DNA from: Eledone cirrhosa | Taxonomy: Eukaryota | DNA length: 64,000 nucleotides | NCBI GenBank assembly: GCA_964016885.1 | Contig: OZ024740.1 | Location: 150,846,001-150,910,000 of the forward strand | Direction: 5' to 3' | In this document: positions 16,861 through 57,953 of the stretch, piece by piece | How positions within the stretch are numbered: the stretch's first letter is position 1 | Layout: the number at the start of each line of letters is the position of its first letter | Position numbers and translations under genes: made by a program | Notes under the pieces: generated by a model | The model's database searches: none | The model's input: the letters and a program-made list of their open reading frames with translations, nothing else | Told to the model about the DNA's origin: nothing

Positions 16861-18332
16861 AACAACAGCCAAAAGGCTAGGAAAAGCCTTTAACTTTGGT
16901 TGGTGACCTTCCTAGTTGTGTTGTATACAATAAAAGCACTGGTAGTTGCGCAACCTTATAAACGCAAATCTCGTGGAATTGATGCAGCCAATAAATATGG
17001 ATACACATTCTTGCAAAAGAGGGGGGAGCACAAAGTGTGGTTGAACTAGTGCTTCAGCGTTGGAAACTGTTTGGAATGCTTGAAATCAGTGTAAACAATT
17101 TGATATGACAGATAAGGAATGTTAAACTCAGCAATTAGCTCACCGGGTTGAATTAGTGGCCCTGGAATTTGAAGTACAAAACATAAATGATAACATTGAA
17201 GGTAACTTAAAAGACGAATGTGGAAAGTGAGAAACTTAGAGATCATAATGAAAATGAATCAACTGAGGATGAATTAGTCTACCAAAATGCTGATATGGAA
17301 AAAATGATGAATTAGTAAATGTGGAGAGTGTAAAATCAAGTGACTGATGATGTGAATGAAAATGAACATGAAACAGCGGACGAAACAAGATCAATTATCA
17401 AAAAAAAAAGAAAATGTCTGTTTAATGATACTGAATTCTATAAGACACTGCTGAATCTTCGGAATGTAGAGTTGTTGTTTAGCAAATGAAACAGCCAAAG
17501 TAAACCATGCGATTCTGTTTTTTTCTCTCTCTCTCTTACTGCTCCCTCGTTCTCTCTGTTTCTCTTACTTTCTTTCGTCCCCTCTGTCATGTCAGTTAAC
17601 ACTTTCTCTCTACTGACCTCTTCCTCGCACTTCCACTCACTCACTCACTGTTTCTCCCCTTCTCACTTCCCCCCGTTCGCGACGAAAACGATTCTCCTTC
17701 TTTCTTACATCGGATTCATCTCGAAAGGTCTATTTCTTACTCGCTCATATATTCACCCAGCTTATACTGATAGAATAACTATGTAGCTTGTGTTTCTTCC
17801 TATCTTCGGTTAGCTTTCCCCTGCGTTGTGTACTTGTCTCACTCGCTTTACGCGTTTTAATTGTCCTAATAACTTATTTTAGTTATTATTGCACCAACGT
17901 GAGGTATATGATTTTTAATGCAATGAAATACCTATGACCGTTGGCAAATCACTGATGAGGGACTCATTTTATAACATGTTATCCATGTGCAACCATGCAT
18001 TATCCTTCTCCCCATATTTTTCACATATATTTATATATATATGGACAAGAACTGAAACAGATGGACAAGAACTGAAACGAGGCCACGGCGAAGGTATTTG
18101 CACTCACCCCGAAGTGGGCTGAGTGCAAACTCTCCTTGAAAGGTCGAGCGGAGATATATCCGAGATATACATATATATATATATAGTCTATCAAAGTGCT
18201 TTCGTTACACATCTGCAATATCATCAGTGGTACTATTATGTTTCCTCCTGTTGTATTGTATGTCTTCGCCATTTTTATTTTAATTAATGTATTTATTTCT
18301 TCTTGTTTTTGTCTCTGCGCATGCGTTTGCGT

Positions 18333-19247: not shown

Positions 19248-19828
19248 AGTCACATTTAGGGTCGACTTGTCAATCTTCTGGCTGTTTTGTAACAACCTTA
19301 TTATTTCTATGTGTGTTTAACTGTTGAATTAATTTCATTTGATTATTTTAACAGGGAAATAATCTATATAGATATATACTAGCAGAATGGCTCGGCTTTG
19401 CTCGGGATTCTAAACATAGATTGGTATGTTTATCCCCCCTTTCTGAAACAGTAGAGAGAAGTACGGAATACCTCGGACTTGCAACCGTCGAATAGCAGAT
19501 TCCACTGACGATTCGTTTGCCCGCCTTGTTCTTTTTCTTGCCGCTTTCGCAGTATTTCGGCCAATGGAGTATCTCTTCCTTCGAGGCCTGACCTAAAAGC
19601 AGGACGAAGTAGACTAAGACTAACTGGTAGAGTAAGGAGTAAACTCGTCAGTGATGCATATGATTTCCGTTGACTATGCAATTGCTGGCCTTGTGCCAAA
19701 AGTAGAGGGACTTTTTGGGGTTGCATATCGGCAGTAACAATGACGATAAGCCGTCTGTGCTTTCGTGAAATAAATACGTTTGTTTATATTTTATTTTTTG
19801 TATGCAAAAATATCTGTACACGAATATA

Positions 19829-21161: not shown

Positions 21162-22155
21162 CTACCCCCCCCCCCGGGTCATTATGGGGTTTGAGGGCGA
21201 GGGCAATCTGTGTTTACATGCAGTTACCAGTTCATCTTTCTTGTTTAGGAGTTGGTCCGTCGAAAACAGCATTTGTAAAGTTTCCTCCGAGCATAAATTG
21301 CACGGACGGCGACCTCCCGTGTAAGAGTTGGCTCTGGACAGTAAGCTCCAAGTGAGATCATAGGTAATATTGTTATGCTTGAGGTCCCATATGTGGACCG
21401 AAAGTGTAGTGACGTGACGCTGGGCCGGGTTTCGGAAGCTATGTCTGTGTTGGTATAGCCGGGTCTTGAAGTCACATGCGGTTAATCCTATATAAGCTTT
21501 GTTGGAGGTGTCCGTCCTCACGTTGCACTGGTAGATCACATTACGATCTCTGCATTTGTTGTCGAGGGGGCAAATGGATCTATCGGGACAGTTGCACCTC
21601 CTGGTCGGCTCTCCACTGCTATTTAGGTTATTTCTTCCATAGGGGTTGAGTTTTTTGTTGTTAGAGGAGACGATGTTTTGTGCAAAGTTTGGTGTGGTGC
21701 TGTAGGAGAGTTTGATGGTATTTTTGTTAATTATGTTGTGGTAGCGGTGTTGTAGTGGGAAGTGTTTTTCAATGAGCCTAAAGAAGATTTTCCCGATAGG
21801 AGTTGTCACCTCGGCGTTGTGGGGAGGATTGAACCATGTTACATTGCGTGAGCGGCGGTGTCGCCTGCTGGTTCCGCTAATGGAAGCTGGACAGTAGGAT
21901 ATTTCCTCCCGGAAATCACTCCGCTTGAGTCCCTGGTTGTAATAAGGCGCATGTTTCTCGAATATCTGCTCATTAGCGGACAAACGAGATATGCGGAGGG
22001 AGATGTTTTAAACAAGGTTATTGGTGATGTTCCTAGGATAGTTTGACCGGCGGTGGATGTAGTGCAGGTTGTCGTTGGGTTTCCTGTATGGGTAGTACAG
22101 ATCATTATCGAGGTCAAGGATAACGTCCAGGAAGTTTACTCGGACCAGGGACGTT
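21162..22155 (-). pseudogene. PLE RT-thumb and GIY-YIG endonuclease fragment
   Basis: WFNPP, CNC-x4-CPL-x3-C, VIY..YIG..FKTR..H, CNLCSEE and LLNKKDE..CKH motifs. One TAA lies just upstream of the 273-aa ORF. Confidence 0.88.
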
Positions 22156-29660: not shown

Positions 29661-31942
29661 TAACAAACGAACGAACAAAGTGATGATGATGATGATGATG
29701 ATGATGGTGAAGGCTATGATGATGATAATAGTAGTACTGGTGATGGTGATGATGAAGTTGTGGTTGAGCTCGTCAAATAAGCTTAAGTGATATTCTTTGA
29801 ACCTCTCCTATCACGTGATTATAAAGTGCCACTCTCATTTATTCATTAATGAACGTTTAGTTAAATACTTTTGGCTTCTTCGATTATTTCATTAATAGGA
29901 TCAGTATAATGACATCACATTAAATGTTATCAATATTGAATCTGCTTAACAATGGTTAATTCGACCTCCACCAATACTCTAGCCGTCTTCCACTTAAAAC
30001 AAATTCCTCATCGGAATTGAATAGGACCATATAAATTATCCACTCCCTAAAAGTGGTCGAATTTATTCAATAGGATTCGAACTCCAGCGGCGAAATCAAT
30101 CAAGCAATCATTTGATCAATTATACACTCAATCAACAATCATTCAATCAGTCAATTAAGTAAGCACGCAATCTTTCAATTAATCTATTGATTAATAAGTC
30201 AATCATTCACTTAACTATCTCTTATCAATGAATGAATGAATCGATTAATCAATCATGCATTCTTCAAAATTTGTTGCATTTATATTAAGACTGGGGATTC
30301 TCGGAATCATTACAGATTAAGATCGATTACTTTGCGGTATTCTTTCCGGGTTTCGTCGTTTTGAGTTAAAATCCCGTCGAGGTCAACTTTACTTTTCATC
30401 CCTTCTTAGCTTAATAAAGAAATGTCAGCCCAATATTGGAGCTGCTTTCTCTTTCTCTCTCCTCACCCTCTCTCTCTCTCTCATTCTCTGTGAAATCGGC
30501 TGTCATCTGACGTGGAGACAGATCGACTCCCTCATATCTATTTAACAGTGCCACTATGATTCGATCAGGAGTTGATAACTGAAGACATGGCAAAGCACAT
30601 CTAACGTTGCAGCGTAAAAGCATTTGCGAAAAACATGCTTCAAAATATCCAATAACAAAAAAGTGAGTTAAATTTAATATGAGGAAGAATATCTTGAAAG
30701 ATTATTTTGTAAGTAATGCCTGTAAAATTTATTGATCATTGCCTCATAAAATTAATTAATAAGAAATGTTCATAGTTTCAGGTGTCTAGGCACGGTTCAC
30801 ATAAACAACACACCGACTCCATCCACTCATAATTATGAACAATTGATCATGCAAAAGTCGTAGTCTTCAAAAAACAATTAACACGACAAAAATAAAAATA
30901 ATCTAAATAAAGAGCCAGTTTCAAAAATAAAGTCGGAAAAGCATACGCGGACACGAGAGGTAGTTTTGTTTAAAGCTTGATTCTAACCAAAGCTACAAAA
31001 GTTTGAAAATGTTCTCATATACAATTTGGAGTGAAATGACCATCATATAAACACAACGTTAGATGACACCACACTAATTTATTTAAGGAGATGCATTTTC
31101 AAATTCCTGAAATATTAGTAATAGAAACAAAACATTTAAAAGGAAAGTATAAATAAAGGAAAGGGAAATAGCAAACTCAAAACAAACAACAGAAATCAGA
31201 ACGTGAATCACGAAAATAAACTTAACACGTGCAAAAGAAAATCACAAAAAACACAACAGCTTAAAGCGTTAAAATACTTGCAGAACACTGATTAACTAAA
31301 TTCCAGCCAGAGCAACTAAAAAACATAAGAATAAAAGTGGCATTCAAAAGGTTTGTAGAATAGAAAATGCTGAAGATAAAAATCCTAGACATCACAATCT
31401 AAAAGTGGAAATATTAACAGAATTCAAATCAATAAGAAATCTTCCTGTAGATCAAAGAATGATCCTGGCAAGGATGAAACTCAACGATGAGATGCAACAT
31501 TAAAAAACGTAAACCCTTCTATCGCACACATCATATTTGTAGACACAAACATCAATATCTTCATATCAAAACGAAATGATATATGCAGGAGCTACAGTAG
31601 TTATAAAGGAATCAGAGTATATTCGTTCGGTTCTATTCATGTAGAAATATTTAATTCAAAGCAATTTGCACGGAAGATAAAATTGTAGAAAAAGTGAAAA
31701 ATGAAACAAAAATTTGAGAGTTCAAGCATTTGTTTAGTGCCAATTGTGTTTTCCCGTGGTGATATGCCACATATATAAAATCATTTTATGCCATTAGTGA
31801 GTATAGACAGGGGGTGTCATTAGAGTTTAATTGTAACTATAACGGCTCTAAGCGTTCACCTAATATATCCCTTTCATATACTGTACCGATTGTGTTGTTA
31901 TTTCTGTTTACCTTTTACACACACACACACACACTCTATCAC

Positions 31943-37506: not shown

Positions 37507-37754
37507 GAAAAAGGAAAAGAATGACCTCATTTGTAGTCCTAAACAATTTAATTTTATAATGTTACAATTTTACAATTTTGTTTTGTAGATCTAGTAAGTT
37601 CTTTGTTAATTTCGGCGGTAAGTTTTTTTTAAAGATTCCTGGTTAACTTTCGGGGAGAACTTTCTCGCATTTCTGGCAATTGGCAATCTGATCTAAAGTT
37701 TCACCCACATCTCTTATATATAGAGAAACACATCACAACACAACTTTAGATCAG

Positions 37755-37895
37755 AATCGTCAGAACGTCGGATAGAATGCTTTGCGGTATTCGTTCCGGC
37801 TCTCAGCTCGCTGAGTTCAAACCCCACCGAAGTCAATTTTACCTTTCATTCTTTCGATGTCGATATGAAAGTACTAGTCTAGTACTGGGGTTGAT
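37755..37895 (+). mobile_element. tRNA/CORE-type SINE, partial
   Basis: gagttcaaacccc B box and ctttcattctttcgatgtcgat core, same family as 55645. Confidence 0.7.

Positions 37896-40658: not shown

Positions 40659-40717
<59 letters not shown>
40588..40717. repeat. (ACT)n microsatellite at the end of the LINE train
   Basis: Seen directly in the sequence. Confidence 0.95.
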
Positions 40718-40719
<2 letters not shown>

Positions 40720-40721
40720 TT

Positions 40722-43700
40722 AATAATGATTTCATTTATTGGCCACAAGGGCCGACATATAGGGGACAACACAATAGACAGGGACAGTGGGGGTTTACAT
40801 AGAGATCGAGTAAGTATAAATAACAAAAAACAAAATAACAATAAAATACAACAATGAAAGTTCCCCAATAAGAGGGATCACCACCCAGGGTTGTCTCAAG
40901 CACCCCACCAGTCCTGAGCCACCCGACGCTCCTAGGGCACCCGGGAAGGGCACTCCTCTCCTTCTCGAATTCACCAGCCTACAGGCGCATGATCAGAGTA
41001 GGCCCACTCACGCGGGCCATTCTCGCCACATTCACCCACCTTTCAGTAAATGTACTGGGGGGCAGCACTTCTCTCTCCACCCTCACCTTCCTTTCCAAGT
41101 GAAACTTGAAGAAGTTGATGAGGGATTGGCCGAAGAGAAAAGTGTCTGTCTTCAGTCCTTTCAACCTGGCCCACCATGCAACCTCTTTCGCTACTGCCAC
41201 CAGGCAGAGGAAAATTGCCTGCCCTTCCTGACCAAAAGAAGGCGGCGGGTCAATCTTCACTATGGACTCGGACGATAGCCGGATCCGTTCTACACGCGAC
41301 AATAGCTGTTCGACATAACCCCACAAGTCAGCAATGCACGGACACTGGACGAGTGCGTGCAGAACGGTTTCGTCGCTCTGCGCGCATCTCGGGCAGGTTC
41401 GTCTGACAGCACTTCCGTGCCTGTAGAGTTTATCCCGAACCGGCAGCGCCCCCCGGTAGCACTGCCAAGCGAGGGATTTCTGGAAGTTATCCATCGTCCC
41501 CGGCTCGAAAGTCCTCCGGAACATACTGGTCAGTTCTACTTCGTTGACGCCCAGAGCCTCTCCTAGTACGTCATCGCACTTGCCCTCCACTAATCCTCTA
41601 TAGAAATCTTGAGTGGAAGTTCCACTGATCGCATTGCCCACCTTGCAGAGTGCAGTGAGCGCCTGGCAACATTCCAGATGCCAGTCGCCCAGTCTCGGTC
41701 TCTTCTTGACCCAGGACTGCAGCTCAGTCAAAGAGATGAGCTGCGGAAAGGCCCGTCTAACAAACGGCGACCACACCTGTTCACCGTTTAGGCAAAATAT
41801 CTGGAGATGTCGCAGCCTCAGCGCATGTCTGCGCATCATTAGCCACGGCATGCCCAGCCCTCCACGAAGAGGGTGCTGGCAGCAGATGGACCGCCTCACC
41901 AACGGGACCCGTCCCCTCCACAAAAATTTGAAAAGGAGCCGTTCCAAATTGGCGAGGCGTGGACGGGGGCAAGGCACGACGGTCAGGCGGTAGTAGATGA
42001 CGGACCCGATGTACGCGTTCGCCACCTCCGCCCGCCCTTTCAGTGATAGCTTTCTCTCAGCCCATTTCTGGGTGAGGTTGGCTATCCTGCTCGTCACCTC
42101 GTCCCAATTCTTATCCACCTGGAGGTCTGGTCCGAACCAAACCCCGAGCAACTTTACCGGTCCGTCTGTCCAGCGCCCAACGACGCTGTTGGACGGCATG
42201 GACTTGCCTCTCCAGGTGCCGAGCTGCAAGCCCACCGACTTTTCCGGGTTAAGTTTTGCTCCCGTCAACTTTTCATATTCCTCCAAATGGGTGCGGATCA
42301 CCTCGATTTCCGAGGTGTCCGACACCATCACGGTGATGTCGTCCGCATAAGCGGACGCAGCCTTTCTACGTCCCGGTTCGAGCGGGATGCCCTGCAACAA
42401 CTCCAGCTTCCGCAGTAGAGGCTCAAGAGTCAATACGTACAGAAGTGAGGAGAGAGGGCACCCTTGACGGACCGATCGAGAGATCTGAAACGGTTCCGAG
42501 AGGTGGCCATTGATTTTGACCACCGAGCAGATGCCGCTGTACATTGCAGCGATCCAGCTTCTGAAGACGGGGCCGAAGCCAGCCGCCTCGAGGACAGCCT
42601 CCAAGTACCGATGGTCGACCCTATCGAATGCTTTCGATTGATCTAAATTGATCAGAGCCCCACCGAAGCCAGGTTTGCACCCAACCCTCTCTATGATGTA
42701 TCGCATGAGGTGGAGGTTGTCGTGTATGGACCTGGTCGGGATTGAGCAAGTTTGCGCCTCCCCAACCAAATCTTTGACGACAAGCGCCAACCTTTTCGCT
42801 AACACCTTGGCCAAAATCTTAAACTCTGTGTTGAGCAGGGTTATGGGCCTGAAATTATCTAGTGTGTCCCTCTTGTTCTCGTCTTTCCTTATCAGCGTCA
42901 CTACGCCACGGCTCACAGAACTGGGAATGCTCCCGTTCTGCTGCCAGTTGCAGTAGAGCGCTTCGAGGAGATCGGAGAACAAGTCTGGCATATTTACGTA
43001 AAGCTCGTAGGGCAGACCATCCAAACCGGGTGACTTGCGACTCGAGCAGCCGACAAGGGCGTCCTGAATTTCGACTGATGTTATCGGCTCTTCGCAGCGC
43101 TCAGCGTCGGCCGTCGAGAGGCGTGGCAAGCCGTCGAGGTAGGGACTGAAGTCCGCCGCCGTCTCCGACTCACCCATCCTCCCGAACAATCGAGCAAAGT
43201 GCTGGCGAAAGGCCTTACACATCTGCTTGGAATCGCTCAGTTCGTGTCCATCTCGATCCGTCAAAGACCGAATTGTGGTTTTATTTCCACGCTGCGTCTC
43301 TGCAAAGCGAGCCCATCGGGCAGCTTTGGTTCCCTCGTTCCTCAGAGCACGCGCCTTAGCTCTGACAATGCAACCTTCGTGTTTCGCATTGAAGAAATGG
43401 TCTAGTGCCATTCTCGCCGCTAGCACGTCTGTTGCAATGCCACTACAAATAGCCTCGTCTAACTTAGCTATCAGCCCCTCCTCCTTTCTATTTTTCTCTA
43501 TTGCTACTTCTTTGCTAAATCCTATCGAGGTTGCTCTAATCTCTCTTTTGAGTGCCCCCCACCACCTGTTGTTGACAACCCCCCCTGTCAACTTTTGCTT
43601 AACTAAGTTGTTGACCCGGTCCCTGTAAGCTTTACGTGCCGGAAACGACATGTTTAGCTTCCAGTAGCTAGGTCCTAACCTACGTGTCTTATCTAGGTCG

Positions 43701-44017
43701 ACCATACAGATCACAAGCTTGTGATCTGAATAGGCAACCGTTTTAAAATGTGGACATCCTACACTATTTCTATCTCTTTTCCTAATGAAAATCCTATCTA
43801 TGTACGATCTAGATGACCCTATGCGATTGGTCCAGGTCCATACTGGCGCATTAGGGAAATCTAGTCGGTACCTGTCAGACAGTTGAAACTGGCTGATCAG
43901 GTACTTGAGGCTTTTGCACCCCCCGCTCCTATCAGATACTCCCACACAATCCCAGCGTGCTTCTAAGATGCCATTCCAATCCCCTATTAACAGTAAAGGG
44001 CGAGACGTAAGCAGAAA
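40722..44017 (-). mobile_element. Tx1/L1-clade LINE copy A (family 1), 5'-truncated, young
   Basis: Uninterrupted ORF2, 3'UTR, AATAAA and ATT tail. TSD ctactactttt(aataat) at 40711 and 44018. Confidence 0.92.
40979..43945 (-). CDS. LINE ORF2: partial APE endonuclease, reverse transcriptase and CCHC (N-terminally truncated)
   Basis: YIDRIF/SDHK, KSPGLDGL, RPITLLN, DQSKAFDRV, VRQGCPLS, AYADD, CPRC-x8-H-x4-C. The frame stays open up to the truncation at ~44017. Confidence 0.93.
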   Translation of the reverse strand: MGVSDRSGGCKSLKYLISQFQLSDRYRLDFPNAPVWTWTNRIGSSRSYIDRIFIRKRDRNSVGCPHFKTVAYSDHKLVICMVDLDKTRRLGPSYWKLNMSFPARKAYRDRVNNLVKQKLTGGVVNNRWWGALKREIRATSIGFSKEVAIEKNRKEEGLIAKLDEAICSGIATDVLAARMALDHFFNAKHEGCIVRAKARALRNEGTKAARWARFAETQRGNKTTIRSLTDRDGHELSDSKQMCKAFRQHFARLFGRMGESETAADFSPYLDGLPRLSTADAERCEEPITSVEIQDALVGCSSRKSPGLDGLPYELYVNMPDLFSDLLEALYCNWQQNGSIPSSVSRGVVTLIRKDENKRDTLDNFRPITLLNTEFKILAKVLAKRLALVVKDLVGEAQTCSIPTRSIHDNLHLMRYIIERVGCKPGFGGALINLDQSKAFDRVDHRYLEAVLEAAGFGPVFRSWIAAMYSGICSVVKINGHLSEPFQISRSVRQGCPLSSLLYVLTLEPLLRKLELLQGIPLEPGRRKAASAYADDITVMVSDTSEIEVIRTHLEEYEKLTGAKLNPEKSVGLQLGTWRGKSMPSNSVVGRWTDGPVKLLGVWFGPDLQVDKNWDEVTSRIANLTQKWAERKLSLKGRAEVANAYIGSVIYYRLTVVPCPRPRLANLERLLFKFLWRGRVPLVRRSICCQHPLRGGLGMPWLMMRRHALRLRHLQIFCLNGEQVWSPFVRRAFPQLISLTELQSWVKKRPRLGDWHLECCQALTALCKVGNAISGTSTQDFYRGLVEGKCDDVLGEALGVNEVELTSMFRRTFEPGTMDNFQKSLAWQCYRGALPVRDKLYRHGSAVRRTCPRCAQSDETVLHALVQCPCIADLWGYVEQLLSRVERIRLSSESIVKIDPPPSFGQEGQAIFLCLVAVAKEVAWWARLKGLKTDTFLFGQSLINFFKFHLERKVRVEREVLPPSTFTERWVNVARMARVSGPTLIMRL

Positions 44018-44049
44018 CTACTACTTTTAATAATAATAATAATAATAAT

Positions 44050-47000
44050 GATTTCTTTATTAACCACAAGGGTTTACATAAAGTAAACATTAAGGACAGT
44101 ACAGGACAATACAGGACGGTACAAATTGGCATTTCTGCGTGTAAAAAAAACAAGAAACAGAGGATGTAATAATAGAACAATAAAAAATTCCCCAATAGGG
44201 GGGAGACTTACGAGGGACATTGGTGGAGAAAGCCTATTAAAAAGCCACAGTGACCCTGACCACCAGGGCAAGTACCCTCTCCCAGTTTTCCACCTTTAAT
44301 TTACAGACACATACTCAGAGTAGGTCCATTCACTCGGGCCATTCTTGCCTCTCTCATCTATCTTTCAACAAAATGCTGGGAGGAGAGCACTTCCCTCTCT
44401 ACCCTGATTTTCCTTTTCAAATGAAATTTGAAAAAGTTAATCAGGGCATCACCGAAGAGGTAAGTGCTCGTCTTCAGCCCTTTCAAACGTGTCCACCATA
44501 CTATCTCTTTCGCCTTGGCGACCAAACAGATAAAAACTGCCTGCCCTTCCCGGCTAAAGGAAGAGGGCGGGGCAATCCTCACGATGGACTCAGCTGATAG
44601 CTGGATCCGTCTCACACGCGACAGCAGGTGTTCGACATAAACCCACAAGTCAGCAATGCTCAGACACTGGACGAGTGCGTGCAAGACGGTTTCGTCGCCC
44701 TGCGCGCATCTCGGACATGCCCGGTTGACGGCACCTCCATGCCTGTAGAGTTTATCCCGAAATGGCAAAGCTCCTCGGTAGCACTGCCAGGCCAGGGATT
44801 TCTGGAAGTTGTCCATAGGCCCCGGCCCGAAAGTTTTTCCGAAGAGATTGGCTAGTTGATTTTCGTCGACGCCTAGAGTTTCCCCAAGGAAGTCATCGCT
44901 CTTCCCCTCCACTAATCCCCTATAGAACGCCAAGGTGGAGTTTCCACCGATCACATTGCCCGATTGGTCAAGGGCTGTGAGCGCCTGAATACATTCCAGT
45001 CTCCAAGCGCTCCCCCTCGGTCTTCGCTTGACCCAGGACTGCAGCTCCGTCAAGGAGACGAGCTGGGGAAAGACGTGTCCAGCAAACGGAGACCACACCT
45101 GATCACCGTCGAGGAAAAGGTGGAGATGTCGTAGCTTGAGCGCGTGTCTGCGCATCATCAGCCACGGCAGGTGTAGACAGCAGATGGACCGCCTGACCAT
45201 CGGAGCGCGTCCCTTCCACAAAAAGCGAAAGAGCAAACCCTCCAGCGCAGACATGCGGGGCTTAGGACAAGGTACGACGGTCAGGCGGTAGTAGGTGACG
45301 GACGCGATATACGCGTTAGCCACCTCCGCTCGACCTTTCAGGGATAGCTTCCTCTCGGCCCATTTCTGGGTGAGAGAAGCCACCCTGCTCGTCACCTCGT
45401 CCCAGTTTTTGTCCGTCTGGAGGTCCGGACCGAACCAGACCCCTAGCAATTTAACTGGTCCGTCCGTCCAGCGCCCGACGACGCTGTTGGACGGAATGGA
45501 CCTGCTTCTCCAGGTGCCGAGCTGCAGGCCCACTGACTTTTCCTGGTTGATCATTGCTCCTGTCACCGCTTCGTATTCTCTTAGTGTAGTGCCGATCGCC
45601 TCGATGTGTTTGGCGTTCGACACCACTACGGTGACATCGTCGGCATATGCTGACACGGATCTTCCGCATCCTAGTTCGCGCGGGACCCCCCCCCCCCTTC
45701 AACGTCTCCAGTTTGTGCAGTAATGGCTCGAGAGTCAATACGTACAAGAGGGACGAGAAGGGACATCCTTGGCGGACCGAGCGCATGATGTTGAACGGTT
45801 CCGAAATGTGACCGTTCACTCTCACCATAGAGCAGATGTCGCTGTGCATTGCAGCGATCCAGCCTCTGAAGACGGGCCCAAAGCCAGCCGCCCTCAGGAC
45901 TGCCGCTAGGTAACGATGGTCGACCCTATCGAAAGCTTTCGACTGATCTAAATTGACCAAGGACCCACCCGTGCCAGGTTCCCTAGCTACCCTCTCTACG
46001 ATGTATCGCATGAGGTGGAAGTTGTCGTGGATGGATCTGTCGGGAATGGCGCATGTCTGCGCCTCTCCCACCAGACCACCAACGACAAGCGCCAACCTCT
46101 TTGCTAGCACCTTGGCCAAAATCTTGAACTCTGTGTTTAGCAGAGTTATGGGCCTAAAATTATCTGTTATCCTTTCGGATCCTTTCTCAGCAGCACCACA
46201 GCTCCTCGGCTCACAGAGCTGGGATTTCTACCGTTCTGTTGCCAGTTGCAGTAGACGTCCGCCAAGAGGCCTCCGAACAAGTCTGGCATCTGTACGTAAA
46301 GTTCATAGGGAAGACCATCCAAACCAGGCGATTTACCCCTTGTGCAGCTAGTCATTGCCTCCCGTACTTCAGCGGCTGTTATCGGCTTTTCGCAACACTC
46401 CGCCTCAGTGGTCGAGAGCCGCGGCAGTCCGTCGAGGTAGACACTAAAGTCCATCCCTCGATCCGGCCCGCCGCTGCCCCCGAACAACTGAGCGAAGTGT
46501 CGCTGAAAAGCTGCACACATTTGTCCGGGATCGAGTAGCATGCGCCCGTCGTGGTCCACCAAAGACCGGATCGTGGCTTTGTTGCCACGACGCGCCTCCG
46601 CTACTTGGGCCCATTGAACGGCTTTCGTCCCCTCGTGTCTGATAGCACGCATCCTAGCTCTGACAACGCAAGTACGTCGGTCGCGATGCCTTTGCTAAGC
46701 GCCTTGTCTAATTTTCTAACTAATTCTCCTTCTGCTCTATTTTTCTCTATTGCTAAAGCCTTACTAAACCTAATGGACTCTATTCTAATTGCTCTTTTCA
46801 GAGCAAACCACCACTTGTTGTTGACGATGGCCCCCGTCAACGCCCGCTTAACTAGTTCGCTAATCCGGTCTCTGTAGGCCTTGCGCGCTGGTAAGGACGC
46901 GTTTAGCTTTCAGTAGCCGAGTCCTTGTCTATGAAGCCTATCTTATTCAAGTACACAGATCACGAATTTGTGGTCCGTGTAGCTGACTATCTTGAATTGT

Positions 47001-49635
47001 GGACAGCCTATGCTAGACCTATCTATTTTTCTACAAAATACTCTATCTAGATATGATCTGGATGACCCTATGCGATTTGTCCAAGTCCACATTGGCACAT
47101 TCGGGAAATCCAATCGGTACCCGTCAGACAGTTCAAAACGCCTGAGCAGGTTGGTGAGGCTCTTGCACCCTCCTCCCCTATCCGCTAATCCCACACAGTC
47201 CCAGCGTGCATCTAAGATCCCGTTCCAGTCGTCCACTAACACTAAAGAGCGGGAAGTTCCAAGAAAGGTCTCCAGACGCCGGAAGAAATCAGGCCGCCCT
47301 GCTCCAGTCGGGGGATAGACGGCCAGTACCCTGAAAGCTTGCTCGTCTCCGCTGGTCACGTCTAGCACCACCAACTTACCTTCTGGGTCCAGGAAGATGG
47401 CCCGTATGGCGAGATCCAAACCTCTCCGAAAAAGCACAGCAACTCCCCCTCCCCCTGATCCCGGACGGCTGGGAGATGCGTACAAATCGTAGCCGCCGAT
47501 CTATGTTTAGTGACCTGAGGTCGTTGAGCAGGTGGCTCTGCTTCCATGATGACCCCAGGCCACGCGCATTTATGCTGCCTATTCTGAGTGAGGTCATGTT
47601 GAAATGGAGTGGAAAAGATGGGAAAGAACACTTACCTTACTTCTCGTAGAGGAAGTATGGTTTGTCCATCCTTTTCACTGCTTGTGGCCTCCTCCGGAAG
47701 GATGTCCTTATAAATCCTCCTGGAGAGTGTTTGTCGGAAGTCTCCGATGTCTTTGGGGAATTTTTGTTTTAGTGTCGTGTACGTTTTCTGTGTGATGCGA
47801 GTGATTTGTATGTGTGGAGGTGGTGTGAACTTTTGGGTTGTTGTGTAGTCTTTTTCTGTGATGCTCGTGTTGTGTTGCATGTAGTGTAATAATTGGTTGT
47901 TGTTCAAATTTAATGCTGTGTAGTGTGTATCGTTTTGGTTGTTTTGTTTTGTTTGCGTTTGTTGTGGGTTCGTTTCTGTTACGCTTTTTGGTGACTTTTG
48001 TGGTGTTGGTGAGGGTGGTGTTGGGGTTAATGATGGTGATGGTGTTGGTGTTTGTGGTGATGGGGTTGGTGATGCTGGTGTGGATGGTGGCATATCTGTC
48101 TCAACTTTCTTGTTCGATAATTTATTTGTTTCCCTCTGTATTTTGTTTTTTGAGGGGGAAGGAAGAGAACTTTTTCTTTTTTGGTTTCTTTTTTTTTTCT
48201 TTTTTTCTGATACCGTTTCCCACTCGTCGTCACAATCTGTCTCCAGTTGCGATAGGCCGGGGAGTGGAAAATCCTCCACAGGCGTTGGTTTTGGTTGTGG
48301 CGTGGTGGATGGTGTAGGAGCTGGTGCTAGTTCTGGGGCGTTTGGTGGTGGTGGTGTTGGTTTTGCTACTGTTGCTGGGGTTGTTGCTGTTATAGTTGCT
48401 TCTGTTGTTGCTGCTACAGTTGTTGCTGCCATCTCTGCTACTGGTGGTGTTGATGGTTGTGTCACTGGGGTGGGTAGGAGAGGTGGCCTCAACCTTTTAG
48501 CCTGAGGGCAGAAAGCCCTTAGGTGGGTTCCTTCACCACAAACGACACACCTAGGTCTTCTGCCCTCGACAATTACCGTGAGGTGGCTGCCGTCAGTGAG
48601 GTCTATTACCTCTGGGATCTCCTCAATGCTTTTATGGTCCGCTTGGATCAGGAGCTCCATCCCAGATCCGGACCAGTTCTCCTGCTTTTCTTTTGCTATT
48701 TCTATTATTTTGGTGTTGGCCTCGATGCCGGCGAGGACGGCAGCCATTAGCCAGGGAATTTCGATGGCCGGTGGAACGTGGGTCACCCTGATCTTCACAA
48801 GTCTCTGGCCACAATAGCTTGGGATGAGTGTGAAGTCGTCACTTCTTAATGGGACCATGGAGTGTTCTCTGGTCTCCTGTGGTGTTTCAAAGGACACGTC
48901 CACGGTTCCATACTTCTGACCCTGTACCCATCTTTCTTTACCATTCCTTTGGCTTCGTCTAATTCTTCCTGAGTAACCTACATCGCTTCGTACGTTTTTG
49001 CTACTCTGGCAAAATTCAGGGTAGTTTTCTTAATTTCATTGTTGCTGTTGTTATTATCGTTATTTTTGCTATTGTTAATTTTAGTTTCAGTTGTGGTGGT
49101 GGTGGCGTCAGTGGTGTTCGGTGTGGAAGAGTTCATTTTGGTTGAATTCATTTCGATATCATGAGTTAATTTATTTTTTTCTTTTGTTTCTGTTGTCGCT
49201 GTGATGGGGGTGGGGGTGGGGGTTGTCGCGGTGGAGGTGGTGGCGGCTTTAACACCTGCAGTCATTGGTAATGGCGGGAAATGAACGTCTGCTTGAGACA
49301 AATTAAAAATATTGCTACTGCTTACAATTCCAGTGTTGGTAAACGTAGCAATGTTTACAATGGTGGTGTCGGTGTGAGGTGTTGGATTGTGAGGAAGGAG
49401 TGAATCTGAGTCATCCATTATTTTTCAAAGAAAAAATTTTTTGTTTGATAATTATAAAAAGTTTAAATTTTGGGCTCAAGGCCCCAATATTTTTGAGTGT
49501 CCTTTTCAGAAATCAATGTATGTGCACTTATATATAGTTAACAATAAAAATATTCCATAAATGGCAATTTTAAATAACTGAAAATAACAAACCTTTGTGG
49601 AGATCACGATGATACGATTTACTACGTAGGTCGCC
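44050..49635 (-). mobile_element. Tx1/L1-clade LINE copy B (family 2), both ends present, disrupted
   Basis: ORF1 fragments 47632-49418 and ORF2 fragments ~44300-47597 with frameshifts and deletions. Highly similar to copy C, with the same 5' start GGCGACCTACGTAG. Confidence 0.92.
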
Positions 49636-49690
<55 letters not shown>

Positions 49691-49933
49691 TTTTCTTTAT
49701 TAACCACAAGGGTTTACATAAAGTAGACATTAAGGACAGTACAGGACAATACAGGACGGTACAAATGGGCATTTCTGCGTGTAAAAAAAAACAGAGGATG
49801 AAATAAAATAACAAAGAAAAATTCCCCAATAGGGGGGAGACTTCCGAGGGACATTTGTGGAGAAAGCCCATTAAAGACCACAGTGGCCCTGACCACCAGG
49901 GCAAGTACCCTCTCCCAGTTTTCCACCTTTAAT

Positions 49934-52900
49934 TTACAGACACATACTCAGAGAAGGCCCATTCATTCGGGCCATACTTGCTTCTCTCACCCATCTTTCA
50001 ACAAAATGCTGAGAGGAGAGCACTTCCCTCTCTACCCTGATTTTCCTTTTCAGATGAAATTTGAAAAAGTTAATCAGGGCATCACCGAAGAGGTAAGTGC
50101 TCGTCTTCAGCCCTTTCAAACGTGTCCACCATACTATCTCTTTCGCCTTGGCCACCAGACAGATAAAAACTGCCTTCCCTTCCCGGCTAAAGGAAGGGGG
50201 CGGGGCAATCCTCACGATGGACTCAGCTGATCGCCGGATCCGTCCTACACGTGACAGCAGGTGTTCGACATAAACCCACAAGTCAGCAATGCTCGGACAC
50301 TGGACGAGTGCGTGCAGGACGGTTTCGTCGCCCTGCGCGCATCTCGGACATGCCCGACTGACGGCACCTCCATGCCTGTAGAGTTTATCCCGAACTGACA
50401 AAGCTCCTCGGTAGCACTGCCAGGCCAGGGATTTCTGGAAGTTGTCCATAGGCCCCGGCCCGAAAGTGCTTCCGAAGAGATTGGCTAGTTGATTTTCGTC
50501 GACGCCTAGAGTTTCTCCAAGTACGTCGTCGCTCTTCCCCTCCACTAATCCCCTATAGAACGCCAAGGTGGAGTTTCCACCGATCACATTGCCCGATTGA
50601 TCGAGGGCTGTGAGCGCCTGAAGACATTCCAGTCTCCAAGCGCTCCCTTTCGGTCTTCGCTTGACCCAGGACTGCAGCTCCGTCAAGGAGACGAGCTGGG
50701 GAAAAACGTGTCTAGCAAACGGCGACCACACCTGATCACCGTCGAGGAAGAGGTGGAGATGTCGTAGCTTGAGCGCGTGTCTGCGCATCATCAGCCACGG
50801 CATGCCCATCCCTCCACGTAGCGGGTGTTGACAGCAGATGGACCCCCTGACCATCGGAGCGCGTCCCTTTCACAAGAAGCGAAAGAGCAAACGCTCCAGC
50901 GCAGTCAGGCGGGGCTTAGGACAAGGTACGACGGTCAGGCGGTAGTAGATGACGGATGCGATGTAAGCATTCGCCACCTCCGCTCGACCTTTCAGGGATA
51001 GCTTCCTCTCGGCCCATTTCTGGGTGAGAGAAGCCACCCTGCTCGTCACCTCGTCCCAGTTTTTGTCCGTCTGGAGGTCTGGACCGAACCAGACCCCTAG
51101 CAATTTAACCGGTCCGTCCGTCCAGCGCCCGACGACGCTGTTGGACGGCATGGACCTGCCTCTCCAGGTGCCGAGCTGCAGGCCCACTGACTTTTCCTGG
51201 TTGATCATCGCTCCTGTCACCGCTTCGTATTCTCTTAGTGTAGTGCCGATCGCCTCGATGTGTTTGGCGTTCGACACCACTACGGTGACATCGTCGGCAT
51301 ATGCTGACACGGATCTTCCGCATCCTAGTTCGCGCGGGACCCCCCTCAACGTCTCCAGTTTGTGCAGTAATGGCTCGAGAGTCAATACGTACAATAGGGA
51401 CGAGAGGGGACATCCTTGGTGGACCGAACGCATGATGTTGAACGGTTCCGAAAGGTGACCGTTCACTCTTACTACAGAGCAGATGTCGCTGTGCATGGCA
51501 GCGATCCAGCCTCTGAAGACAGGCCCAAAGCCAGCCGCCCTCAGGACTGCCGCTAGGTAACGATGGTCGACCCTATCGAAGGCTTTCCACTGATCTAAAT
51601 TGATCAAAGACCCACCCGTGCCAGGTTCCCTAGCTACCCTCTCTACGATGTATCGCATGAGGTGGAGGTTGTCGTGGATGGATCTGTCGGGAATGGCGCA
51701 TGTCTGTGCCTCTCCCACCAGACCACCAACGACAAGCGCCAACCTATTTGCTAGCACCTTGGCCAAAATCTTGAACTCTGTGTTTAGCAGAGTTATGGGC
51801 CTAAAATTATCTGTTATCCCCCTTGTTCGGATACTTTCTCCGCAGCGCCACCGCTCCTCGGCTCACAGAGCTGGGAATTCTCCCGTTCTGTTGCCAGTTG
51901 CAGTAGACGTCCGCCAAGAGTCCTCCAAACAAGTTTGGCATTTGTACGTAAAGTTCATAGGGCAGACCATCCAAACCAGGCGATTTACCCCTTGTGCAAC
52001 TAGTCATTGCATCCCGTACTTCAGCGGTTGTTATCGGCTTTTCGCAACACTCCGCCTCAGTGGCCGAAAGCCGCGGCAGTCCATCGAGGTAGACACTAAA
52101 GTCCATCCCTCGATCCGGCCCGCCACTGCCCCCGAACAGTTGAGCGAAGTGTCGCTGAAAAGCTTCACACATTTGCCCGGGATCGAGTAGCATGCGCCCG
52201 TCGTGGTCCACCAAAGACTGGATCGTGGCTTTGTTGCCACGACGCGCCTCCGCCACTCGGGCCCATTGAACAGCTTTTGTCCCCTCGTGTCTGAGAGCCC
52301 GCACCCTAGCTCTGACAACGCAGCCTTCGTGCTTTGCATTGAAGAATTGGTCAAGGGCCAATTTCGCCGCAAGTACGTCGGTCGCGATGCCTTTCCTAAG
52401 CGCCTCATCTAATTTTCTAACTAATTCTCCCTCTGCTCTATTTTTCTCTATTGCTAAAGTCTTACTAAACCTAATGGACTCTATTCTAATTGCTCTTTTC
52501 AGAGCAAACCACCACTTGTTGTTGACGATGGCCCCCGTCAACGCCCGCTTAACTAGTTCGCTAATCCGGTCTCTGCAGGCCTTGCGCGCTGGTAAGGACG
52601 CGTTTAGCTTCCAGTAGCCGGGTCCTCGTCTATGAAGCCTATCTAAGTCAAGCACACAGATCACGAATTTGTGGTCCGTGTAGCTGACTATCTTGAATTG
52701 TGGACAGCCTATGCTAAACCTATCTATTTCCCTACAAAATACTCTATCTAGATATGATCTGGATGACCCTATGCGATTTGTCCAAGTCCACATTGGTACA
52801 TTCGGGAAATCCATTCGGTACCTGTCAGACAGTTCAAAACGTCTGAGCAGGTTGGTGAGACTCTTGCACCCTCCTTCCCTATCCATTAATCCCACACAAT

Positions 52901-53351
52901 CCCAGCGTGCATCTAAGATTCCGTTCCAGTCGCCCACTAACACTAAAGAGCGGGACATTCCAAGAAAGGTCTCCAGACGCCGGAAGAAATCAGGCCGCCC
53001 TGCTCCTGTCGGGGCATAGACGGCCACTAACCTGAAAGCTTGCCCGTCTCCGCTGGTCACGTCCAGCACCACCAACTTACCTTCTGGGTCCAGGAAGATG
53101 GCCCGTATGGCAAGATCCAAACCTCTCCGAAAAAGCACAGCAACTCCTCCCCCCGATCCCGGACGGCTGGGTGATGCGTACACATCGTAGCCGCCGAAGA
53201 TCGGTGCGAAAGCCTGTGCTTCGGAGATTCTGGTCTCGCTGATGGCCACTACATCTATGTTTAGTGACCTGAGGTCGTTGAGCAGGTGGCCCTGCTTCCA
53301 TGACGACCCCAAGCCACGCGCATTTATGCTGCCTATTCTGAGTGAGGTCAT
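49934..53351 (-). pseudogene. ORF2 (APE-RT-CCHC) of copy C, split into three ORFs
   Basis: IGSINARG, SET, VYAP, GDWN, TDHK, AYADD and CPRC motifs distributed over 51807-53351, 50870-51766 and 49934-50854. Confidence 0.92.
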
Positions 53352-53385
53352 GTTGAAAAGGAGTGGAAAAGATGGGAAAGAACAC

Positions 53386-55388
53386 TTACCTTACTTCTCG
53401 TAGAGGAAGGACGATTTTTCCATCCTTTTCACTGCTTGTGGCCTCCTCAGGAAGGATGTCCTTATAAATCCTCCTGGAGAGTGCTTGTCGGAAGTCTCCG
53501 ATGTCTTTGGGGAATTTTTGTTTTAGTGTCATGTACGTTTTCTGTGTGATGCGAGTGATTTGTATGTGTGGAGGTGGTGTGAATTTTGGGGTTGTTGTGT
53601 AGTCTTTTTCTGTGATGCTGGTGTTGTGTTGGATGTAGTGTAATAATTGCTTGTTGTTCAAATTTAATGCTGTGTAGTGTGTATCGTTTTGGTTGTTTTG
53701 TTTTGTTTGCGTTTGTTGTGGGTTTGTTTCTGTTTCGCATTTTGGTGACTTTTGTGGTGTAGGTGATGGTGGTGTTGGGGTTAATGATGGTGATGGTGTT
53801 GGTGTTTGGGTTGATGGGGTCGGTGATGCTGGTGTGGATGGTGGCATATCTGTCCTAACTTTTTTGTTTCTTAATTTATTTGTTTCCCTCTGTATTTTGT
53901 TTTTGGAGGGGGAAGGAAGAGAATTTTTTCTTTTTTGGTTTCTTTTTTTTTTCCGGATATCGTTTCCCACTCCTCGTCGTCACAATCTGTCTCCAGTTGC
54001 GATAGGCCGGGGAGTGGAAAATCCTCCACAGCCGTTAGTTTTGGTTGTGGTGTGGTGGATGGTGTAGGCGCTGGTGGTAGTTCTGAAGCGTTGGGTGGTG
54101 GTGGTGTTGGTTTTGCTGGTGGTGGTAGTGGTGTTGGTTTTGCTACTGTTGCTGGGGTTGTTGCTGTTATAGTTGCTTCTGTTGTTGCTGCTACAGTTGT
54201 TGCTGCCATCTCTGCTACTGGTGGTGTTGATGGTTGTGTCACTGGGGTGGGTAGGAGAGGTGGCCTCAACCTTTTAGCCTGAGGGCAGAAAGCCCTTAGG
54301 TGGGTTCCTTCACCACAAACGACACACCTAGGTCTTCTGCCCTCGACAATTACCGTGAGGTGGCTGCCGTCAGTGAGGTCTATTACCTCTGGGATCTCCT
54401 CAATGCTTTTTTGGTCCGCTTGGATCAGGAGCTCCATCCCAGATCCGGACCAGTTTTCCTGCTTTTCTTTTGCTATTGCTATTATTTTCGTGTTGGCTTC
54501 GATGCCGGCGAGGACAGCCGCTATTAGCCAGGGAATTTCGATGGCCGGTGGAACATGGGTCACCCTGATCTTTACGAGTCTCTGGCCACAATAGCTTGGG
54601 ACGAGTGTGAAGTCGTCACTTTTTAATGGGGCCATGGAGTGTTCTCTAGCCTCCTCTGGTGTTTCCAAGAACACATCCACGGCTCCATACTTTTGCCCAC
54701 GTCTGATGTGGGTTTTTCTTGCCCACACATGTCCCAAAGCTTTTTGGATTTGGGACTCGGATGCCCGTTCCACTCGGCGCGATTTTACATTTATTGTTCT
54801 ATACGACACGGTGCATAGGCGCCAATGCTCCATTTTATTAGGTGGGGGGGGGGGGGGGAGGCTGACCCTGTACCCATCTTTCTTTACCATTTGTTTGGCA
54901 TTTTCTAAATCCTCCTGAGTTACCGTGAATGCTTCGAACTGTTTTGCTACTATGGCGAAACTGAGGGTCGGTTTTATAATGTCATTGTTGTTGTTGTTGC
55001 TACCGTTATTTGTGTTAATATTAATTTTAGTTTCAGTTGTGGTGGTGGTGACGTCAGTCGTCTTTGGTGCGGAAGAGTCCATTTTGCTTGATTTCATTTC
55101 GACATCACGAGTTAATTTATTTTTGTCTTCTTTTTTTTCTGTTGTCGCGGTGGTGGTGGGGGTGGTGGTTGTTGCGGTGGTGGTGGTGGTGGTGGAGGCT
55201 TTAACACCTGCAGTCATTGGTAATGGCGGGAAATGAATGTCTGCCTGAGACAAATTTAAAATATTGCTAGTGCTTATATTTTTTTTCGTGTTGGCAAACG
55301 TAGTAACATTTACAATGGTGGTGTCGGTGTGAGGTGTTAATTTGTGAGGAAGGCTTTCAGCTGCTTCGTGCAGAGGTGAATTAGCCAT
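53386..55388 (-). pseudogene. ORF1 of copy C (gag-like zinc knuckle), frameshift near the poly-T at ~53945
   Basis: C-x2-C-x4-H-x4-C motif (CVVCGEGTHLRAFC) and Thr/Pro-rich linkers. Copy B is continuous across the frameshift. Likely ATG at 55388. Confidence 0.88.
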
Positions 55389-55596
55389 TTTTTTCAAAGA
55401 AATTTTTTTGATAATAATAAAAGTTTAAATTTTGGGCACAAGGCCCCAATCTTTTTGGGTGTCCTTTTCGGAAAACAATGTATGTGCGCTTATAAACAGT
55501 TAACAATAAAATTTTCCATAAATGACAATTTTTAACAAACGGAAATAACAAACCTTTGCGGAGCTCACGATGATACGATTTACTACGTAGGTCGCC

Positions 55597-55637
<41 letters not shown>

Positions 55638-55644
55638 TAAAAAT

Positions 55645-55837
55645 AATAATTGTTTCTACTTTTGGCACAAGGCCAGCAATTATATCAGTGTATTACTGGT
55701 ACTTTATTTTATCGACCCTGTATGGATGAAAGGCAAAGTTAACCTCGGCGGGATTTGAACTCAGACCATAAAGAGCCGTAACTCTTTGCTGCAAAGCATG
55801 GTGTCCGACCCTCTACCGATACTGCCAATCGACCGCC
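55645..55837 (-). mobile_element. Full-length tRNA/CORE-type SINE with 19-bp TSD
   Basis: A box tggcagtatcgg, B box gagttcaaatcc and ATT tail. TSD taaaaataaaaataataat at 55632 and 55840. Confidence 0.88.
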
Positions 55838-55854
55838 CTTAAAAATAAAAATAA

Positions 55855-56110
55855 TAATAATTGTTTATATTTTTAGTACAAGGCCAGCAATTATCCTAGT
55901 GTATTCTTCTTGTGACGCTAAACCCCGCCATTTACAGACTGCAAATTAACATTGATCACAAGCAGCAGAATTCAAAGAGCAAAGGTCAAGTCCAATCCAT
56001 AAATTGACATTGTCAAGCCATCGTTTTTGCTGCCGGCCTCTGCTTCTCTTACATTACATGAACTTTATTTTATCGACCCCGTAAGGATGAAAGGCAAAGT
56101 TAACCTCAGC
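55855..56110 (-). mobile_element. Partial SINE of the same family interrupted by an RTE 3' fragment (55904-56055)
   Basis: SINE tail and core segments flank an insert that translates to RSRGRQQKRWLDNV and ends in gaagaa. Confidence 0.7.
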
Positions 56111-56111
56111 A

Positions 56112-56790
56112 AATTGTTTCATTTATTGGCCACAAGGGCCGACATATAGAAGACAAAACACTAAACGGTGACAGTTGGATTTTTACATTAAAAAATCAAG
56201 CAATGAATATAAAAACAATAACAATCAACAAGAAAAATACATACAACAGAGGAGATAACCACCCGAGGGCGACTCAGGTACCACACTAATCATGAACCGC
56301 CCGACGCTTCATGAACCACGCCTCTCCTCCACAAATTAGTCAGCCTACAGGCGCATGCCCAGGGTAAGCACATTTACACAGGCCATTCTCGTTACATTAA
56401 CCTTTCAGCAAATGTACTGAGGAAGGGGTGGCAGCATTTCTCTCTCAACCCTCAACTTCCATTCCAAGTGGAACTTGAAAAACTGGATGACGGATCGGCC
56501 TGTAGATACTTGCTTTGTATTGAGGGGAGAAATCTCTCAAGTGGACCGTCTGCCCACAGATGGCAGCGAGGATTCTCCCCCCCCCCCCCAGCAGTGGTAT
56601 GGAGTTCCATTTCCCACGCCAAGCAAATGAAGTCTGGGATATCTTCAATCTTCTCTGGTTTGATGTGGAGGAGTAACACCCAGACCAGTTTTCCTCTCTG
56701 TTCTCTCTACCTCGACGTCCAGGCGGGTCAGCATCCACTAGATATCCAGCTGTGGTAGGATTGCTGTTATTCTGACCTTTATGGTATAAC
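56112..56790 (-). mobile_element. Internally deleted Tx1 copy D (ORF1 knuckle region fused to family-1 ORF2 end and 3'UTR)
   Basis: 56115-56490 aligns with 40730-41120. IEDIPDFICL..PRCHL resembles ORF1. Confidence 0.75.
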
Positions 56791-57763
56791 ATCTTTACTC
56801 ACACAGACACACACGCCCCCCTCCCAATATATATATATATATGTATAGAACATCTTATACAAAATAACTGAGGGGTAGTTCCCAATAAAGTAATCTAAAA
56901 TAAGAACACTCCACATGCATCTCTTTCTAGAAATATAGTCTAGTTGAGCAGTCTAAAGCTGGAACGCTTCACTAAGATCCCTTACTGAAGATTCAAGATC
57001 AAGAATATCTTATTGTCACAAGATTAACAACGACATATTAGCTGGGTCTTCTTGTTCTTTAGACAAATCAAAGGCAGCACAAACGTGACTGTCCCGTCTT
57101 CTTATGTACAGAGAACCCAAAAGTACATTAACTAATGCAACCTTCTCGATGACATTGTGTGTGTATTGTGTGTAAAGGAGATTGAAAATACTGTTTGTTA
57201 TTGATAGTAAGTCGACCAATCACATTCGTAGTTGTTAATATCTAACTTTAGGTCAACTTCGGTCGAGCGGTCCTATGATGAAAGATCTTAAATCGTGACC
57301 ATCTTGTAAACCCAGAACCACAATATCCAATATTTACTTTTCTAAGAGATAGAGTGAGATTTATCTGCTATATATAACAGGTTGAACAATCACTTAGAAA
57401 TATCATCGTGATGTGCTATGTATTTATTTAGCATTGATGATCTCGAGTGTAGGGAAATGGTGTTGTGTTGTGTCAGGATAAATATTTCTCAGAAGATATA
57501 TCGGCTTGAGGCAAAAAGTGTTCATGATACGACCAACGGTCCAATTTAAGGATCTCATATAGCATTTGCCAGTAGCATTTACACATATACTTGATATCAA
57601 TATAGAATATAGTTATGATTTTCTATGTGCCTATAAATATGTACCAAAATATCTTTGGATCAATAAGTCATTTAGACTAATTGTCACTATCTATCTATCT
57701 ATCTATCTATCTATTTATCTATCCATATATTGACTATATATATAACCACTAATAATCGTTATT

Positions 57764-57953
57764 AATAATTGTTTCTACTTTAGGCACAAGGCCAGCAATT
57801 ACCCAGTGCATTACTGGTACTTTATTTTATCGACCCCGTAAGGATCAAAGGCAGAGTCAACCTCGGCGGGATTTGAACTCAGATCGTAAAGGGACGTAAC
57901 TATGCTGGAAAGCAAGGCGTCCGACCCTCTACCGATACTGCCAATACACCGCC
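57764..57953 (-). mobile_element. Full-length SINE with 14-bp TSD
   Basis: Colinear with 55645-55837. TSD tcgttattaataat at 57756 and 57954. Confidence 0.88.

Follow-up and report, generated by a model that had tools for sequence, protein, structure and literature searches.

A 3′ hairpin common to Tx1-type LINEs and an abundant SINE in the octopod Eledone cirrhosa

We describe a 64,000-nucleotide (nt) window of the Eledone cirrhosa genome (assembly GCA_964016885.1, contig OZ024740.1, positions 150,846,001 to 150,910,000; coordinates below are those of the window), in which four long interspersed elements (LINEs A to D) of apparent Tx1 type are piled up with copies of an abundant short interspersed element (SINE). 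The Tx1 LINEs and the SINE have a common 3′ motif that consists of a 3-bp hairpin with a five-base loop, a spacer of 7 to 8 nt, a purine box, and ATT repeats. We consider it likely, with a probability of roughly 0.6, that the protein of the second open reading frame (ORF2) of a Tx1 LINE, ORF2p, binds this motif on either RNA and so mobilizes the SINE in trans. The match between the SINE and LINE tails, in a clade where it is unusual, is real and well supported. The covariation of the stem is weaker than the initial annotation of the window had implied.

Tx1-type LINEs and SINEs with a common tail

Read along the minus strand, the pile runs from a SINE at 57770-57953 through a fragment of LINE D, a piece of SINE body, the decayed tail of another SINE, and a full SINE to LINEs C, B, and A. 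Its features are listed here, with UTR standing for untranslated region.

40728..44016, minus strand: LINE A, Tx1-type and 5′ truncated, with an ORF2 remnant of 1012 open amino acids (40982-44017)
40710-40727 and 44017-44034: 18-bp target duplication of LINE A, beginning at ATT
40741..40753, minus strand: 3′ hairpin of LINE A, 4 bp with a 5-nt loop (40745-40749)
44050..49635, minus strand: LINE B, a family C copy of almost full length in which internal deletions are present and the frames are broken
44062..44074, minus strand: 3′ hairpin of LINE B (loop 44066-44070)
49472..49484, minus strand: hairpin copy in the 5′ UTR of LINE B, with a single loop base altered (loop 49476-49480)
49690..55596, minus strand: LINE C, full length (5.9 kb), with (ATT)n flanking both ends
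start at 55388, minus strand: ORF1 of LINE C, with a CCHC knuckle read in the translation
53351-49937, minus strand: ORF2 of LINE C (endonuclease, reverse transcriptase, and zf-RVT), with one frameshift and one stop
49702..49714, minus strand: 3′ hairpin of LINE C (loop 49706-49710), its two outer pairs A-U where LINE A has G-C
55434..55446, minus strand: hairpin copy in the 5′ UTR of LINE C (loop 55438-55442)
55651..55838, minus strand: full SINE of about 188 nt, with an A/B-box-like head, a conserved body, and a hairpin tail; 19-bp target duplication
55663..55675, minus strand: 3′ hairpin of the SINE at 55651-55838 (loop 55667-55671)
55856..55905, minus strand: decayed SINE 3′ fragment (loop 55878-55882), whose tail hosts the SINE at 55651-55838
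56053..56110, minus strand: SINE body fragment, directly following LINE D
56115..56524, minus strand: LINE D, an old 3′ fragment about 70% like LINE A, with a hairpin at 56128-56140 (loop 56132-56136)
57770..57953, minus strand: full SINE of a second subtype, with a 3-bp hairpin at 57783-57793 (loop 57786-57790) and a 14-bp target duplication

The DNA of LINEs A and C is about 77% similar, LINE B is 93% identical to LINE C over 3.5 kb, and LINE C is inserted within the (ATT)n tail of the SINE at 55651-55838. Six minus-strand hairpins had been reported in the initial annotation, and all of them are present, with stems of 4 bp in LINEs A, B, C, and D and of 4 and 3 bp in the two SINEs. The ATT-repeat tail said to follow each of them is found in all but LINE D, where a single ATT is followed by a SINE fragment. 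From the end of the loop to the first ATT there are 16 nt in LINEs B and C and the SINEs and 17 nt in LINEs A and D; in LINE A the hairpin is followed by a poly(A)-signal hexamer, the purine box, and (ATT)2. The third, decayed SINE tail and the motif copies in the 5′ UTRs of LINEs C and B had been overlooked.

The proposed placement of these LINEs in the Tx1/L1 group is borne out by Pfam domains, a reverse transcriptase (RT) tree, and pairwise scores, and within that group they are probably Tx1-type elements. ORF2 has an N-terminal apurinic endonuclease (APE) domain, an RT domain, and a C-terminal zinc-binding domain (Pfam Exo_endo_phos, RVT_1, and zf-RVT), and ORF1 lies upstream. In the RT tree, from which one I-like row was dropped and in which one row was mis-windowed and no true L1 row was included, the LINEs fall within a 26-row clade (support 100/99) that includes an alligator protein named TX1 and is separate from the CR1, RTE, and Dong rows of the genome. 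Among named proteins, one from Argonauta hians (74% over 63% of the searched region) is nearest to the LINE protein, and it belongs to the same clade. The best PDB match is human L1 ORF2p (E 5e-52); the alligator TX1 protein scored 287 bits at 32% and L1 scored 180 bits, values that come from different programs and favor Tx1. Families A and C are young and abundant, the best 40 of 3,076 candidates being 99 to 100% identical in family A and the best 40 of 1,142 candidates being 98 to 100% identical in family C.

The motif is found far beyond the window. In exact-pattern searches of the 3.0-Gb assembly, each paired with a control, one SINE tail pattern gave 73,563 matches and its reversed control gave 0; a non-SINE-type loop with (ATT)3 gave 17,534 (control, 55), and the tail type of LINEs B and C and a further family, E, gave 12,667 (control, 0). 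Counts so far above the controls argue that the motif is not a product of chance. Among the matches listed, 0 of 100 Tx1 tails run into poly(A), and about 9 in 10 go on in ATT. In most aligned Tx1 tails the stem runs straight into a poly(A)-signal hexamer, and the SINE is without it; the presence of this signal in inserted Tx1 copies that have no poly(A) would fit priming from the repeats and not from poly(A).

The SINE itself is short (about 188 nt), noncoding, and present in high copy number, with target duplications and a simple-repeat tail. By eye, its head carries motifs resembling the A and B boxes. ARAGORN found 0 genes in this head and Rfam returned no tRNA match or known RNA family, so that a tRNA origin is not confirmed by these searches. 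The body may resemble the 66-bp Meta domain of the MetaSINEs. In an unselected 510-kb sample, Tx1 elements cover about 5%, the SINE 2.1%, and a CR1 family with (ATT)n tails 0.4%. Recent activity of the SINE is indicated by its best 30 matches, whose nearest neighbors stand at 96 to 98%, together with a SINE fragment that has a target duplication and lies inside a CR1 copy 98% like its family. SINEs are also frequently inserted in the tails of other SINEs, which gives tandem dimers.

The partner of the SINE

The partner of the SINE is probably a Tx1 LINE. Other LINEs were sampled by two Pfam searches and in about 0.5 Mb of evenly spaced stretches, which yielded CR1 (four types), RTE (four), Dong (two), and I-like elements (two), assigned to their clades by motifs and by position in the tree. 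Tails were compared from their ends against mononucleotide shuffles, with the ends of the non-Tx1 tails set by eye. Over the last 30 nt, three SINE tails reached z values of 2.9 to 4.8 against all 8 Tx1 tails and did not exceed 1.9 against any of the 12 others, which belong to CR1, RTE, Dong, and I-like elements; over the last 45 nt, the values were 1.6 to 5.4 against Tx1 and at most 2.1 against the others. These z values are to be read as rankings and not as independent tests, because the Tx1 tails are related, the ends were set by eye, and the shuffles were mononucleotide. Among the 12 non-Tx1 tails sampled, none matches the SINE tail, in agreement with the pairing first proposed.

A young CR1 family with open frames of 945 to 957 amino acids, often intact, also ends in (ATT)n and, like the SINE, does not need ATT tracts to insert. 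In the parts of the literature consulted, the partners given for mollusc SINEs are CR1, CR1-Zenon, L2, Nimb, and RTE, and “Tx1” is not mentioned in the main text of three of these four papers (PMC4824008, PMC11481361, PMC4758252, PMC5786205). Our survey of LINEs is a sample of about 2 Mb supplemented by two family searches. It could be supposed that the SINE is mobilized by another LINE and that the likeness to Tx1 is historical or convergent. The candidates would be the young CR1 with its (ATT)n tail, an RTE, and an L2, I, or Hero family that is extinct or escaped the sampling. We regard such a partner as quite improbable. The tails of the CR1 family reach z values of at most 0.3 against the SINE, and its truncated copies lack proper target duplications, with a duplication in 2 of 25, both of them runs of AT dinucleotides (a “full-length” class with 0 of 10 duplications was set aside, its reference copy being short of the true 5′ end); on these grounds this CR1 is disfavored as the partner. 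Dong/R4 was rejected, as its repeat tail runs in the opposite sense and is without such a hairpin, and none of three RTE and two I-like tails fits the SINE. The hairpin of the CR1 family is one of its own, with a 5-bp stem and a loop of six bases, and the combination of the same repeat tail with a different hairpin suggests that the tail alone does not define the template.

The insertion sites of the SINE and of Tx1 can be compared through their target duplications. Among 109 full SINEs, 77 have a duplication of at least 8 bp, and in 59 it is not pure ATT (controls, 5% and 13%); these duplications are 8 to 22 bp long and mostly start at ATT. Three of 27 truncated Tx1 copies have clear duplications that are not pure ATT (18, 18, and 20 bp), which likewise start at ATT, and 8 have pure ones; many of the Tx1 “truncations” are internal deletions. 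An (ATT)n run precedes the 5′ end in 30 of 30 family C copies and 17 of 18 full family A copies, which indicates a target preference. A long 5′ (ATT)n is present also in full-length C copies flanked by Dong coding sequence, a sign that the RNA may bring some of this run with it. Tx1 copies are also often found tail to tail in the repeat tails of Dong/R4, which offer (ATT)n on the opposite strand.

If the model of the L2 LINEs applies, Tx1 ORF2p would bind the hairpin and spacer on its own RNA or that of the SINE. The Tx1 endonuclease would then nick ATT-containing DNA, and reverse transcription would be primed by the AUU repeats of the RNA, paired with the strand that had been cut. Every insertion brings in a new (ATT)n, and this would explain how the elements came to be stacked head to tail in the order SINE-SINE-C-B-A.

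Conservation and possible roles of the hairpin

Stem covariation was examined in an alignment of 15 natural copies picked by hand, in which each family or subtype is represented by one or two and the rows are related. The closing pair is C-G in all 15; the second pair is C-G in the 12 Tx1 rows and G-C in the 3 SINE rows; and the third is G-C in 12, A-U in 2 (family C), and G-U in 1. All three of these inner pairs are thus kept in 15 of 15 representatives while the flanks diverge. The 4-bp helix named at the outset exceeds 500 of 500 shuffles both for percent paired and for covariation score, and with 88% of its positions paired it beats all slid controls (13 to 55%). RNAalifold returned the same 3-bp helix, at only -3.2 kcal/mol. 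In 212 SINE tails, taken from 235 bodies of which 23 had no recognizable tail, the columns of the loop and inner stem are 93 to 99% constant, and five spacer columns, which vary between subtypes, are 60 to 83% constant. Pair 4 is mismatched in 15 of 100 copies of the abundant family E, counted by eye among the matches listed. Tx1 families with (ATCT)n tails, which are sister to family A within the same clade (support 99/94), retain the stem (3,503 exact matches).

A number of observations weigh against the recognition of this hairpin by Tx1 or against the pairing of Tx1 with the SINE. The stems do differ while the inner pairs hold, as the initial annotation had claimed, but the covariation it saw amounts to only two independent double changes in the inner pairs, and the one in the SINE can equally be read as the loss of one pair from an A-type stem. 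Two event-counting measures of covariation gave the helix no advantage over shuffles (85 and 59 of 500). The 4-bp stem does not stand as the conserved unit, since pair 4 is broken in 7 of the 15 representatives and the conserved core is 3 bp, and the hairpin of the SINE at 57764 is missing from the predicted fold in its 51-nt context. The loop, described as invariant, is so only among the (ATT)n-tailed families and the SINE: in the first 100 (ATCT)n tails listed, inspected by eye, 31 have a loop altered at two positions and a wobble-containing stem, a few more have one loop change, and 2 are unrelated. The stretch common to the SINE and Tx1 is as short as about 26 nt and is not identical, and no Tx1-type 3′ tail with the exact stem of the SINE was found genome-wide, the 2 matches both having SINE sequence upstream. 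Most SINE copies (median, 89% to one copy) are older than the youngest Tx1 burst (98 to 100%), and no inserted SINE turned up in any A or C copy. The ATT sites used by the SINE are short, and its targeting differs in degree from that of Tx1: (ATT)3 is present at the 5′ junction of 32 of 34 full Tx1 copies versus 14 of 109 SINEs, and the median number of 3′ ATT units is 5.5 to 10 in Tx1 versus 2 in the SINE. The duplications of full-length Tx1 copies equal the control and are uninformative because both flanks are ATT tracts. Finally, the tail comparison was made without L2, Hero, R2, and one RTE family whose tail could not be delimited.

Some of these features would suit another arrangement in which Tx1 is the partner and the AUU repeats alone suffice, with the hairpin serving 3′-end processing or RNA stability and merely inherited by the SINE. 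We think this unlikely. The stem has 3 bp and little covariation, the poly(A)-signal hexamer stands directly after it in most aligned Tx1 tails, the loop drifts in sister families, and a related hairpin occurs in 5′ UTRs, where 3′-end priming is unexpected. A hairpin that was merely inherited accords poorly, however, with a SINE that lacks the hexamer yet retains the register, the loop, the stem, and the purine box, with the constancy of its hairpin across subtypes, and with a CR1 family that ends in the same repeat and keeps its own different hairpin. We lean toward stringent recognition by Tx1 ORF2p, in which the hairpin would be required.

The hairpin in the 5′ UTRs of three Tx1 families is new here. 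In family C it lies about 46 nt before the start of ORF1 and has an inner stem of the SINE type, after which come an A-rich spacer and ATT repeats; its z values against Tx1 3′ tails reach 4.6. Related hairpins, identified by eye, lie about 40 to 60 nt before ORF1 in families A and C and a third family, the 5′ UTRs of which are otherwise dissimilar. The best 5′ UTR matches continue into ORF1 in 30 of 30 cases, and old solo copies may also exist. The SINE-type stem of the family C copy, taken with the lack of any Tx1 3′ tail that has it, suggests a different history in which the SINE tail came from a 5′ UTR hairpin copy or gave rise to it, the motif being used at both ends of the Tx1 RNA or being a relic of an upstream neighbor in a tandem array. 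Such a history seems to us highly improbable. Outside the hairpin, the 5′ UTR of family C does not resemble the SINE (local score, 14 versus 18.7 for shuffles), and its origin as a captured copy of this SINE is rejected for that part. The local fold of the 5′ copy prefers another pairing (0.06), and the purine box, common to the SINE and the Tx1 3′ tails, is imperfect in it. Some 5′ parts of family C carry internal deletions or are fused to the 3′ end of another family (one with an A-type tail); these chimeras are possibly recombinants or template switches.

Relation to known LINE-SINE pairs

Loop-specific and stem-general recognition has been tested experimentally in the stringent L2 LINEs, namely, eel UnaL2 with UnaSINE1 and zebrafish ZfL2-1 and ZfL2-2 (PMC4176376). 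The elements described here resemble these LINEs in having a 3′ stem-loop and a short-repeat tail, and it is their recognition that serves as our model; unlike them, the present clade is L1/Tx1, the stem has 3 bp, and the system is known from sequence alone. Stringent cases within the L1 clade have been published for plants and an alga, and the strategy has rarely been reported in the L1/Tx1 group. Maize and sorghum L1 elements with ZmSINE2 and ZmSINE3, as well as Chlamydomonas L1-1_CR with SINEX-3_CR, are L1-clade LINEs and SINEs with a common 3′ end, in which, as here, the loop and 3′ flank are conserved, the stem is variable, and stringency has been inferred (PMC3472496, PMC3747384). The plant and algal pairs share 50 to 80 nt, and the algal ones end in poly(A), whereas the animal elements described here share about 26 nt and end in (ATT)n (PMC3472496, PMC3747384).

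Mobilization of a SINE by Tx1 has also been proposed for crocodilian SINEU and Tx1-Mar, a case argued from a common target; the SINE ends in poly(A), and no LINE with the 3′ end of SINEU-1 was described, whereas the tail motif is common to both elements here (PMC4494074). Like Kibi, Koshi, and the crocodilian (TTCC)n and (TTTC)n families of Tx1, the present LINEs are flanked by specific microsatellites, but the repeats are (ATT)n and switch to (ATCT)n in sister families (PMC4494074). With the MetaSINEs, including SepiaSINE2 of cuttlefish, the SINE appears to have in common a putative tRNA-like head followed directly by a short conserved body, and the partner LINEs of MetaSINEs are stated to be unknown in that account (PMC4824008). 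In the consulted part of a 2026 annotation of the Octopus vulgaris genome, SINEs make up 11.6% of the genome, most of the recently active SINE families are left unclassified, and 13 active L1-Tx1 families are described with no SINE partner named (PMC13282606). In the literature searched, no L1/Tx1-SINE pair of an animal is described as having a common hairpin, and Repbase, Dfam, subscription papers, and most supplements could hold one.

An animal Tx1 lineage with such a hairpin would support stringency as an ancestral trait. If our interpretation is correct, it also identifies what drives a SINE to which at least 2% of the genome sample belongs. The fuller proposal that a stringent L1/Tx1 lineage of an animal drives the dominant octopod SINE, with the same hairpin at both RNA ends, is tentative, and we hold it to be rather doubtful. 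The young families (98 to 100% identical, some with open ORF2 frames) make the stringency of Tx1 directly testable. Inside one Tx1 clade, there has been a switch of tail or target from (ATT)n to (ATCT)n, with some loops altered, and the loop changes in some of these sisters would, if hairpin recognition by Tx1 holds, be a natural system for studying the evolution of RNA and target specificity in L1-type elements.

Two further observations concern the remainder of the window. A 281-amino-acid frame at 21165-22007 on the minus strand presumably resembles the GIY-YIG end of a Penelope-like element and has no Pfam match. On the plus strand, one old fragment of a Tx1 RT and three fragments of SINEs lie at 18040-18153, 19680-19706, 30362-30401, and 37752-37878.

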